Virus record (IMG/VR): IMGVR_UViG_2582581022_000009
Strand: one strand, 5' to 3'
Length of the DNA stretch: 15,216 nt
From: a virus
Lineage: Duplodnaviria; Heunggongvirae; Uroviricota; Caudoviricetes
Shown here: piece by piece, positions 5,227 to 7,095 of the stretch
How positions within the stretch are numbered: position 1 is the first letter of the stretch
Layout of the letters: every line of letters begins with the position of its first letter
Notes under the pieces: generated by a model
What the model was told of the DNA's origin: nothing
The model's input: the letters and a program-made list of their open reading frames with translations, nothing else
Database searches by the model: none
Position numbers and translations under genes: made by a program

Positions 5227-5260
5227 TGAAAATAAAAACAAAAAACCCGCCGAAGCGGGT
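5227..5260 (-). terminator. Rho-independent terminator (minus strand) downstream of the HTH-peptidase gene
   Basis: Hairpin ACCCGC-cgaa-GCGGGT (5245-5260) followed on the minus strand by TTTTTTGTTTTTATTTT. Confidence 0.6.
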
Positions 5261-5264
5261 ATAC

Positions 5265-6368
5265 TCAAACAATCTGGAAAATATTTCTTGGATTTGTAAT
5301 AGGTCTGTTGATGGAGAACAACTCACGAATTAAATCTTGGCTCAAGCCAGTTTTCATAAGAATTCTTAGCCAGGTTGCATCATCCAGCATTTCAATCGCC
5401 TCGGCCAGCATGCCGGGTTCTTCAGGGCGCAAAAGTTCATCACCAGGTTCAACTCTCGTATACCCTCTGGAATTAAGATGCATATAGCCAGTTCTTGCCT
5501 GTTCCTGGGTCAATAAGCCTAATGCGCTGGCTCGATAAATACACATTTTAAGGCTGATTTTCCATCTAAGTTTAAATTCAACCAGAGCATTCCAGTCGAA
5601 TTGCTTACCTCGTATTCGTGGAAATTCTTTAATGAAAGATAACCTGGGAACTAATAAGGCGCTCGAAAAGTGATCGGCTTGTGATTCCGTAAGTTTATCA
5701 CCTGTCGTTATGCCCTCATGCATTACTAAATGCCCTAATTCATGACCTAAATCAGAGCGAAATCTACATATGCTTTTTTTAACATTGTTCCTGATGATAA
5801 CAGGCCTGTTATTGTGAACAGTAAAAGCATCAACACGATCATCGACTCCCGTAACATGCGCAACGATTACCCCTAAACTCTCCGCCAATTTAACCATTGA
5901 TGATATAGGGCCAAGACCTAAATTCCAGGCACGGCGACAATCTTCTGCCACTCGCTCAATATCATTCGGAGTAAGTAATTCAGCCCCTGGGTGCTCCGGT
6001 ATGTTAACGTCAGGAAATTCGATTTCACCTTCAACAGCAGAAATTATAATATTAAGAATCTCAGCCCTGGCCAATACACTATTAGTCAGCGTTTGAGTCC
6101 TGGACTTCTTACTCCGAAAATGGCAGACATCACTTTCCAGAGCGTATTTTCGTTCAGTAAAAAGAAAACTGGACTTAATCATAAGCGCTGAAGATATTAA
6201 CTCAAGACATTGCTCCGATGGCCTGCACCCCTTCTCCAGTTTGCTAACGAATTGCTTTGTCTTGCCAATTTTTTCGGCTAACTCTTCACAAGAAAGCCCA
6301 ACAGCCATTCTCGCTAGTTTGAGCTTATCACCCCGATACTCAGTGAAGTTATTCACCTGATGTTCCAT
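5265..6368 (-). CDS. Fusion protein: N-terminal XRE-family HTH + ImmA/IrrE-type (M78, COG2856-like) zinc metallopeptidase domain
   Basis: HTH: LKLARMAVGLSCEELAEKIGKTKQFVSKLEKGCRPSEQCLELISSAL; peptidase motif HEXXH as SDLGHELGHLVMHEG (HELGH, as in IrrE/ImmA). Overlaps the upstream gene by ~20 nt; sampled 60-bp stretches are ~30-35% GC versus >50% in flanks. Confidence 0.75.
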   Translation of the reverse strand: MEHQVNNFTEYRGDKLKLARMAVGLSCEELAEKIGKTKQFVSKLEKGCRPSEQCLELISSALMIKSSFLFTERKYALESDVCHFRSKKSRTQTLTNSVLARAEILNIIISAVEGEIEFPDVNIPEHPGAELLTPNDIERVAEDCRRAWNLGLGPISSMVKLAESLGVIVAHVTGVDDRVDAFTVHNNRPVIIRNNVKKSICRFRSDLGHELGHLVMHEGITTGDKLTESQADHFSSALLVPRLSFIKEFPRIRGKQFDWNALVEFKLRWKISLKMCIYRASALGLLTQEQARTGYMHLNSRGYTRVEPGDELLRPEEPGMLAEAIEMLDDATWLRILMKTGLSQDLIRELFSINRPITNPRNIFQIV

Positions 6369-6999
6369 CACTGCTCACATCCAAATCTTTATCCTTCGTA
6401 CGCCGACGAAGAGGCACCTTATTAATCTCCGCTTCGTCAGGGAGTGTGTTATAATCAAGAGGCATAAGCGGCATCGATGCTGTAGATTGATGAGAAACTA
6501 TACTAATCTGAGCACCATAAGTATTAAATCCAACAAGAGCTACCTCCCAACGAGGCAGTGTGGACTCTAATTCACCATCGCCCTCTTCGGATAAAAAAGG
6601 CTCAGCTATGACTCGCCATGTAATATCTTGCTCAGCCTCAACATCACCAAACAATGAGAGCTGCTCATACTCTACTTTATTTCGACGCAGACGATGTTTC
6701 TTTTTGGGGTTATTAATGCAATCTTTGGTAAATTGTAGCGGAACTTTATTTAAAGCAACTACATAGTCCAACCCCTTGGAAATCATCTCAAGGCCAGGAA
6801 TTGCATCTTCATTTTGAATAAGATGATTTCTGACCCAATCATAAGCCCTTACACCTTCAGACCAGTTGCTGTCTAATGCGTGCTTATGATAGTACAGCTG
6901 CTCAAGTACGTTAGCGATCTCCGCCAACAAGTGGCGAACATAGTTTTCAGCAAGATAAGGTTGAAATTCCCAACAAGGAGCTAACTGATTTTCATTCAT
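6349..6999 (-). CDS. Hypothetical protein (216 aa), first gene of the AT-rich cassette; no recognisable domain
   Basis: MNENQLAPCWEFQPYLAENYVRHLL...; basic patch KKKHRLRRNK mid-protein, acidic C-terminus; co-oriented and overlapping with the HTH-peptidase gene. Confidence 0.6.
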   Translation of the reverse strand: MNENQLAPCWEFQPYLAENYVRHLLAEIANVLEQLYYHKHALDSNWSEGVRAYDWVRNHLIQNEDAIPGLEMISKGLDYVVALNKVPLQFTKDCINNPKKKHRLRRNKVEYEQLSLFGDVEAEQDITWRVIAEPFLSEEGDGELESTLPRWEVALVGFNTYGAQISIVSHQSTASMPLMPLDYNTLPDEAEINKVPLRRRTKDKDLDVSSDGTSGE

Positions 7000-7034
7000 T
7001 TCAAGTTTCGCTTTTTTTAGAATTCGTAAACCAC

Positions 7035-7063
7035 ATATTTTCGCATTTTTCTATTTTTGTCAA
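7035..7063 (-). promoter_or_regulatory. Putative sigma70 promoter for the two-gene cassette
   Basis: Minus strand: TTGACA (7063-7058), 17-bp spacer, AAATAT, about 35 nt upstream of the 6999 start codon. Confidence 0.35.
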
Positions 7064-7071
7064 CCAGACTA

Positions 7072-7095
7072 ATGCAAAAACCCGCCGAAGCGGGT
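7072..7095 (-). terminator. Rho-independent terminator (minus strand) downstream of hok; same hairpin as at 5245-5260
   Basis: ACCCGC-cgaa-GCGGGT (7080-7095) followed on the minus strand by TTTTTG. Confidence 0.5.

Follow-up and report, generated by a model that had tools for sequence, protein, structure and literature searches.

The window analysed here is a stretch of 15,216 nucleotides (nt) of viral DNA (Caudoviricetes; IMG/VR record IMGVR_UViG_2582581022_000009), and the element under study is a two-gene cassette on its minus strand, at positions 5,227 to 7,095. The cassette is very probably a RosmerTA system, consisting of the putative toxin gene rmrT and the putative antitoxin gene rmrA, and belonging to a subfamily other than the one in which a member has been verified. 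The predicted toxin RmrT carries the pentapeptide QLSLF, a match to the motif by which bacterial proteins bind the beta sliding clamp DnaN, and we give slightly less than even credence to the reading that RmrT acts through the hydrophobic pocket of DnaN by means of this motif, that is, by clamp poisoning. As a whole, the account of a two-gene RosmerTA-type moron with toxin and antitoxin roles and a clamp-directed mechanism appears likely to us.

Both genes match RosmerTA profiles

A first-pass annotation of this DNA had described two overlapping genes on the minus strand, and both are present. The first, rmrT (6999-6349), starts with ATG and encodes 216 amino acids (aa) that are predicted to be soluble; the second, rmrA (6368-5265), encodes 367 aa from its ATG, the start given in the list of open reading frames (ORFs) being a GTG at 6371. 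The two genes have the same orientation, with the toxin gene first, and overlap by 20 nt (6368-6349). RmrA combines an XRE helix-turn-helix (HTH) domain with an M78 (ImmA/IrrE-type) zinc-peptidase domain and a C-terminal extension, in agreement with the earlier description of an HTH protein with an HELGH metallopeptidase motif. Pfam placed HTH_3 at aa 17-63 (5e-07) and Peptidase_M78 at aa 177-282 (6e-11), and the zinc-binding HExxH motif is HELGH at aa 209-213 (codons 5730-5744, minus strand). The HExxH...E site is intact, with H209, E210, H213, H217 and E228 invariant in six RmrA proteins that are 28-73% identical to that of the cassette.

The first-pass annotation had found no recognisable domain in the product of the first gene. 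This holds for Pfam and NCBIfam, in neither of which RmrT had a match, but not for the PADLOC model of RmrT, PDLC03929, which matched aa 7-209 of the 216 (4.6e-25), nor for PHROGs, where phrog_5786 was matched at 8e-85. RmrA matched the PADLOC model PDLC03943 over aa 12-351 (6e-105) and phrog_2439. In sequence searches of the PDB, all matches of RmrA were to HTH domains, and the RmrT profile had no meaningful match. Since both genes match catalogued RosmerTA profiles, of a family named in 2022, the cassette is not the undescribed module that had been suspected; the accompanying proposal of a defence or abortive-infection module with the first gene as effector agrees with the predicted RosmerTA membership.

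RosmerTA was named by Millman et al. (2022), who verified one member, from Escherichia coli OLC-716, and defined the family by a Zn-peptidase antitoxin together with a toxin whose function is not known; the toxins are described as variable within the family. The cassette resembles the OLC-716 system in being an operon of two genes in which that of the toxin comes first and overlaps the gene for an antitoxin of about 370 aa made of an XRE HTH and a Zn-peptidase, and its RmrA is 29% identical to the verified RmrA (2e-35). The two differ in their PADLOC sub-models, which are PDLC03929/PDLC03943 here and PDLC03935/PDLC03949 for the verified pair, and in their toxins, which lack sequence similarity. 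Distant members of the RmrT family still matched PDLC03929, and an exhaustive profile search of 1.84 billion proteins yielded 69 representatives of this family, most of them of about 200 aa. These data place the cassette, with high probability, in a RosmerTA subfamily distinct from the verified one. No tested member of this PDLC03929/PDLC03943 subfamily was found in the literature searched.

The toxin-antitoxin architecture, and the position of the cassette next to a hok/sok locus, would also suit a pure addiction module, one that stabilises the prophage by post-segregational killing and has no anti-phage role. Related Rosmer antitoxin genes cannot be deleted (Millman et al., 2022), and related systems make clpP or clpX essential. 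Against this, phage protection is known for the RosmerTA systems of E. coli OLC-716 and of Gordonia phage Kita, and the cassette is found in prophage moron sites and near defence-type genes (RES/HEPN, Abi). An exclusively addictive function is therefore unlikely, and addiction and defence are in any case not mutually exclusive.

A candidate clamp-binding motif in RmrT

Amino acids 113-117 of RmrT read QLSLF (codons 6649-6663, minus strand), and the bacterial beta-clamp-binding consensus is reportedly QL[SD]LF or QLxLxL, the first of which QLSLF matches exactly. The motif peptide, a candidate clamp binder, is VEYEQLSLFGDVE. It is flanked by a basic patch at aa 97-109 (net +7) and an acidic stretch at aa 110-147 (net -11). 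In an alignment of 46 RmrT sequences, E-x-x-Q-[LMFY]-x-[LMF]-[FL] was the best-conserved stretch of the family, with E110, Q113 and L116 among the top columns, and the variants comprised QLSLF, QMTLF, QLTLF, QFSLF, QLPLF, QLSLL and QLSLPL. In 34 of the 46 sequences the clamp-motif pattern was found at the aligned site, and in none of these did it occur elsewhere; the number expected from shuffling was 0.47.

A similar result was obtained for the family of the verified OLC-716 RmrT, which showed no profile similarity to that of the cassette (hhalign probability 1.3%) and in which a clamp-like pattern was found at a comparable position in 16 of 23 sequences (0.31 expected). The verified RmrT itself carries a clamp-like hexapeptide at about aa 143-150, within an acidic linker, and the variants in its family include QLKLDL, QLxLxF and QMDLDL, with NLDLF in members from Vibrio, Photobacterium and Shewanella. 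Among other Rosmer-like toxins, a motif following a basic patch was seen in a Zymomonas plasmid protein (QLSLF), in Clostridioides difficile phage phiCD27 (QLSFF) and in an Enterococcus phage (QYNLF). The AlphaFold2 (AF2) model of RmrT had a predicted local distance difference test (pLDDT) score of 84, with 74 for residues 111-120, a region that fell below 50 when the alignment was shallow; with the place of QLSLF between charged and variable segments, accessibility of the motif is suggested.

Genetic work on a related system points in the same direction. RipA of Streptococcus pneumoniae, a Rosmer-family toxin, interacts with DnaN; substitutions in the hydrophobic pocket of DnaN suppress it, and its restraint depends on ClpX (Maziero et al., 2025). 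In E. coli, clpP is made essential by a prophage-borne toxin-antitoxin pair that Millman et al. (2022) cite as having this configuration. No mention of a clamp-binding motif in Rosmer toxins was found in the literature searched.

The following mechanism is proposed. By analogy with the family, RmrT would be the toxin and RmrA would keep it harmless, and RmrA probably represses its own operon by binding through its HTH to two conserved 33-nt units that overlap the putative promoter. Phage infection or loss of proteolytic control would then free RmrT and abort the infection, as is expected for the family; related toxins appear to need ClpX or ClpP for their restraint. Free RmrT would occupy the DnaN pocket with its QLSLF motif and thereby block clamp-dependent replication, both of the host and of phages that use the host Pol III. 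Extended beyond the cassette, and more tentatively still than for RmrT itself, the proposal is that Rosmer toxins may in many cases, both in this subfamily and in that of the verified E. coli RmrT, be sliding-clamp poisons with an internal QL[SD]LF or QLxLxL motif, which would defend by freezing clamp-dependent replication and would be held in check by the HTH-peptidase and ClpXP.

Several points weigh against this account. The clamp pattern is short, with a background of about 0.1 matches per 230-aa protein, and its conservation within a family partly reflects common descent. The motif is absent from the Rosmer-like toxins examined from Mycobacterium, Gordonia, a Clostridium tetani phage, Staphylococcus aureus and Acinetobacter, and 12 further phage-borne Rosmer-like toxins gave three strict matches and two near-misses, a yield that alone is not above background. 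BLASTP detected no similarity between RmrT and the verified OLC-716 RmrT. Rosmer toxins are heterogeneous, that of Gordonia phage Kita being one that depolarises membranes. Residues 108-115 are helical in the AF2 model, so that the motif could be structural instead of a docking peptide. Toxicity, neutralisation and phage protection are predicted for this subfamily from homology.

A further point on that side comes from the fold of the RmrT model (pLDDT 84), which gave recurrent weak matches to restriction-endonuclease folds only; on this ground RmrT might be a nuclease, a PD-(D/E)xK-fold toxin that degrades DNA once released. In the alignment, D78 was found in 19 of the 46 sequences and there was no conserved (D/E)xK, the near-invariant residues being D43, E110, W128 and R129. 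A PD-(D/E)xK fold with a conserved catalytic D...(D/E)xK motif was thus not found, and Foldseek of the RmrT model against BFVD gave no match. The restriction-enzyme-like fold is a weak resemblance, and RmrT is not called a nuclease here because the canonical catalytic residues are not conserved; that it is one seems improbable. A membrane toxin of the phage Kita type was also considered for RmrT and was rejected for want of a hydrophobic segment: no transmembrane segment was predicted in the protein (maximum KD19 0.84).

The cassette is a discrete insertion at the hokD terminator

The insertion measures 1,835 bp, one copy of a 20-bp direct repeat included. This repeat, AAAAACCCGCCGAAGCGGGT, is the terminator hairpin of hokD, the gene directly upstream of the cassette, and its upstream copy at 7076-7095 (minus strand) is 100% identical to the downstream copy at 5241-5260 (minus strand), which forms the terminator hairpin after rmrA. 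The downstream copy was recovered by both the repeat search and the terminator scan, the latter showing a stem at 5260-5245 followed by a T-run downstream of rmrA and an identical hairpin upstream, with its stem at 7096-7079. An empty-site query, in which the cassette was deleted and one hairpin kept, was searched in complete E. coli genomes. The result showed a single uninterrupted match in 74 complete genomes, and the empty hokD site of strain 025542-1 has exactly one hairpin copy at the junction. The single-terminator empty site bears out the first-pass idea of a horizontally acquired moron.

The cassette itself was found in 237 of 5,426 complete E. coli genomes (about 4%), and the hokD-cassette junction in 232. 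At least 99% identity over the whole cassette was seen in 224 of 238 matching records, and its two ORFs, both intact in the window, have the sequence of the commonest allele (413 member sequences). Within E. coli the cassette has what is essentially a single insertion site, at which it is present in some genomes and absent from others. A megablast search of the INPHARED phages with the cassette gave no match. With its discrete insertion, atypical GC content, presence/absence polymorphism, own terminator and putative promoter, the cassette can be classed as a moron.

Outside this site, the rmrT-rmrA pair, with the toxin gene first and the genes overlapping, was recovered in unrelated contexts, among homologues whose identity falls as low as about 25%. 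These include Serratia prophages, where it lies between Q and the holin gene, a Xenorhabdus prophage, a position adjoining Tn7-like TniA/B/Q genes and another 3 kb from a Tn3-family transposase; the pair also stands beside a RES/HEPN gene on a contig whose RmrT protein is recorded by NCBI from a Desulforhopalus metagenome-assembled genome. The two genes thus move together, as one unit, among prophage sites and settings associated with transposons. In Salmonella houtenae (AGRM01000003, about 1370-1985), an intact ORF of the RmrT family (hidden Markov model E-value 6e-61, motif QASFLF) lies upstream of an rmrA gene; the record annotates only the last 41 codons of this ORF, and what looks like an orphan antitoxin is an annotation gap.

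At the same site between hokD and the DUF968 gene, Escherichia phage Tritos (OV696610, 1014-4528) has a distinct Rosmer-like pair, made up of a 204-aa protein and an ImmA/IrrE-HTH protein, and its RmrA is 32% identical to that of the cassette. The hokD-DUF968 site looks like a hotspot for alternative cassettes. Some divergent cassettes, on two viral contigs, likewise have before them a hairpin of the ACCCGC...GCGGGTTTT type that resembles the one in the window, some 45 nt upstream of the conserved TGGTTGACA. Recombination of the cassette may make use of terminator hairpins as handles.

The distribution also bears on a second function offered in the first-pass annotation, namely that RmrA is an ImmA/IrrE-like protease that acts in trans as an anti-repressor and cleaves the prophage repressor (13352-13813), which was said to lack an autoprotease domain. 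That repressor is an HTH protein of 153 aa with no peptidase domain; RmrA has an M78 domain of the ImmA/IrrE type and a weak similarity to CapP, and many genomes hold both the cassette and the repressor. However, the prophage of strain 025542-1, where the hokD site is empty, has the identical repressor (153/153 aa); genomes with the cassette number 237 and those with the repressor 180; and the pair is also found near transposons and elsewhere in prophages whose immunity regions are unrelated, so that the idea of repressor control fails. RmrA, moreover, carries an HTH of its own and is always coupled to an rmrT gene, and control of induction would be purposeless in a prophage that is defective, with no lysis or morphogenesis genes and only a stub of Q. 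We consider this function very unlikely.

Expression signals, composition and selection

The 66 nt before the rmrT start are kept in cassette variants whose farther-upstream DNA is unrelated, and by this comparison the conserved leader marks a functional boundary of the cassette. This leader (7001-7066, minus strand) is promoter/operator-like and consists of two tandem 33-nt units (7066-7034 and 7033-7001) that are identical at 21 of 33 positions and both contain the blocks TGGTTKAC and GCGAAA. We infer that repeated operator sites for the HTH of RmrA here overlap a promoter. The first-pass annotation had given the cassette its own TTGACA promoter and terminator. The terminator hairpin and the TTGACA, at 7063-7058, are there, the best -10-like sequence being AAATAT at 7040-7035, 17 nt on; the promoter itself was not called at this site (7063-7035) by a consensus promoter scan, the -10 matching at only 3 of 6 positions. 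The contrast in base composition had been overstated, at 30-35% GC in sampled stretches of the cassette and more than 50% in the flanks: the cassette has 41.5% GC, the left flank 51.8% and the right flank 48.8%, and only isolated 100-nt windows drop to 30%.

Comparison of both genes with variants about 84-93% identical in protein gave nonsynonymous divergence (dN) of 0.05-0.09 and saturated synonymous divergence (dS), a ratio of about 0.01-0.05; over the comparisons in which dS was estimable, dN/dS was roughly 0.01-0.09. Both rmrT and rmrA are under strong purifying selection. That the cassette is a decaying, non-functional remnant is most improbable, for although its host prophage is degraded and carries an insertion sequence (IS), both ORFs are unbroken and of the commonest allele, nearly all records (224 of 238) are at least 99% identical, purifying selection is strong and the promoter region is conserved.

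The surrounding prophage

The window represents a defective lambdoid prophage of E. coli, of the Rac/Qin-like kind, and the cassette lies in its nin region. From high to low coordinates the order is repressor, YdaS/YdaT pair, DnaT-like and P-like replication genes, DUF1627 and DUF977 genes, IS3-family insertion, QueH gene, hok/sok, cassette, DUF968 gene, RusA gene, Q stub, Pin/Hin-type invertase gene and tail-fibre fragments. The YdaS/YdaT-type pair (13250-12560, minus strand) is divergent from the repressor, a Rac-like immunity layout. The hok/sok type I locus directly upstream of the cassette comprises hokD (7320-7165, minus strand), a type I toxin gene outside the module whose terminator the insertion duplicated and that is annotated at the equivalent position in E. 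coli 042, and sok (Rfam RF01794, 7490-7315, 120 bits). Between hok/sok and the replication region lies a gene for a QueH epoxyqueuosine reductase homologue of 228 aa (7558-8244; Pfam 1e-65).

The IS3-family element (8304-9622) has 38-nt imperfect inverted repeats at 8304-8341 and 9585-9622 and contains orfA (8326-8754, HTH_Tnp_1) and orfB (8712-9593, rve integrase core); at this position about 1.35 kb is missing from closely related E. coli prophages. The antiterminator Q gene is cut to an N-terminal stub of 64 aa (3182-2988) that abuts the Pin/Hin-type serine invertase gene (2329-3027), and segments of tail-fibre and tail-fibre-assembly genes lie at 60-779 and 1258-2402. Lysis and head/tail morphogenesis genes are absent from the window.

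Discussion

A functional parallel is with RipAB (Spr1630/Spr1629) of S. pneumoniae. The antitoxin architecture is shared, RmrA matching the NCBIfam spr1629 model over its full length at 1.5e-45, a score below the model cut-off, and the canonical clamp motif of RmrT would fit the genetic target of RipA, the hydrophobic pocket of the clamp. The systems differ in that RipAB is chromosomal and linked to competence, and the toxins were compared by description only. In Caulobacter crescentus, ClpXP keeps down the level of SocB, a toxin that blocks the beta clamp. SocAB thus shares the proposed target of RmrT, the clamp hydrophobic pocket, and the ClpXP link of related Rosmer systems; by contrast, SocA is a ClpXP adaptor and not an HTH-peptidase, this comparison likewise being by description only.

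The M78-type HExxH domain and the XRE HTH are also found in ImmA/ImmR of ICEBs1, IrrE/DdrO of Deinococcus and CapP/CapH of CBASS, although the profile match between RmrA and CapP was weak (1.6e-14). In those protease-repressor pairs a separate HTH repressor is the substrate and the pair regulates a neighbouring element or operon. The cassette is built differently, its HTH and protease being joined in one protein; the partner is a putative toxin with no HTH, and the pair moves independently of any regulated element. PD-lambda-2, which defends E. coli against phage, also has an Xre-HTH and peptidase fusion beside a toxin-like gene, but it has three genes, the first HigB-like and the third of P4 type, and its Xre-peptidase is itself toxic (Vassallo et al., 2022).

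Standard annotation of defence systems with the profiles of PADLOC or DefenseFinder would assign this locus to Rosmer, and the finding as it was first posed is an ordinary one; the locus does document a clean moron insertion at the hokD terminator. The value of the present analysis is in the mechanism, since a clamp motif is conserved in two sequence-unrelated families of E. coli RmrT, one of which belongs to a verified defence system. What is known of Rosmer toxin action, in the literature searched, amounts to a membrane-depolarising phage toxin and the genetic evidence that connects RipA with DnaN. The clamp hypothesis is directly testable in a tractable host and, if true, may explain why related systems make ClpX or ClpP essential.

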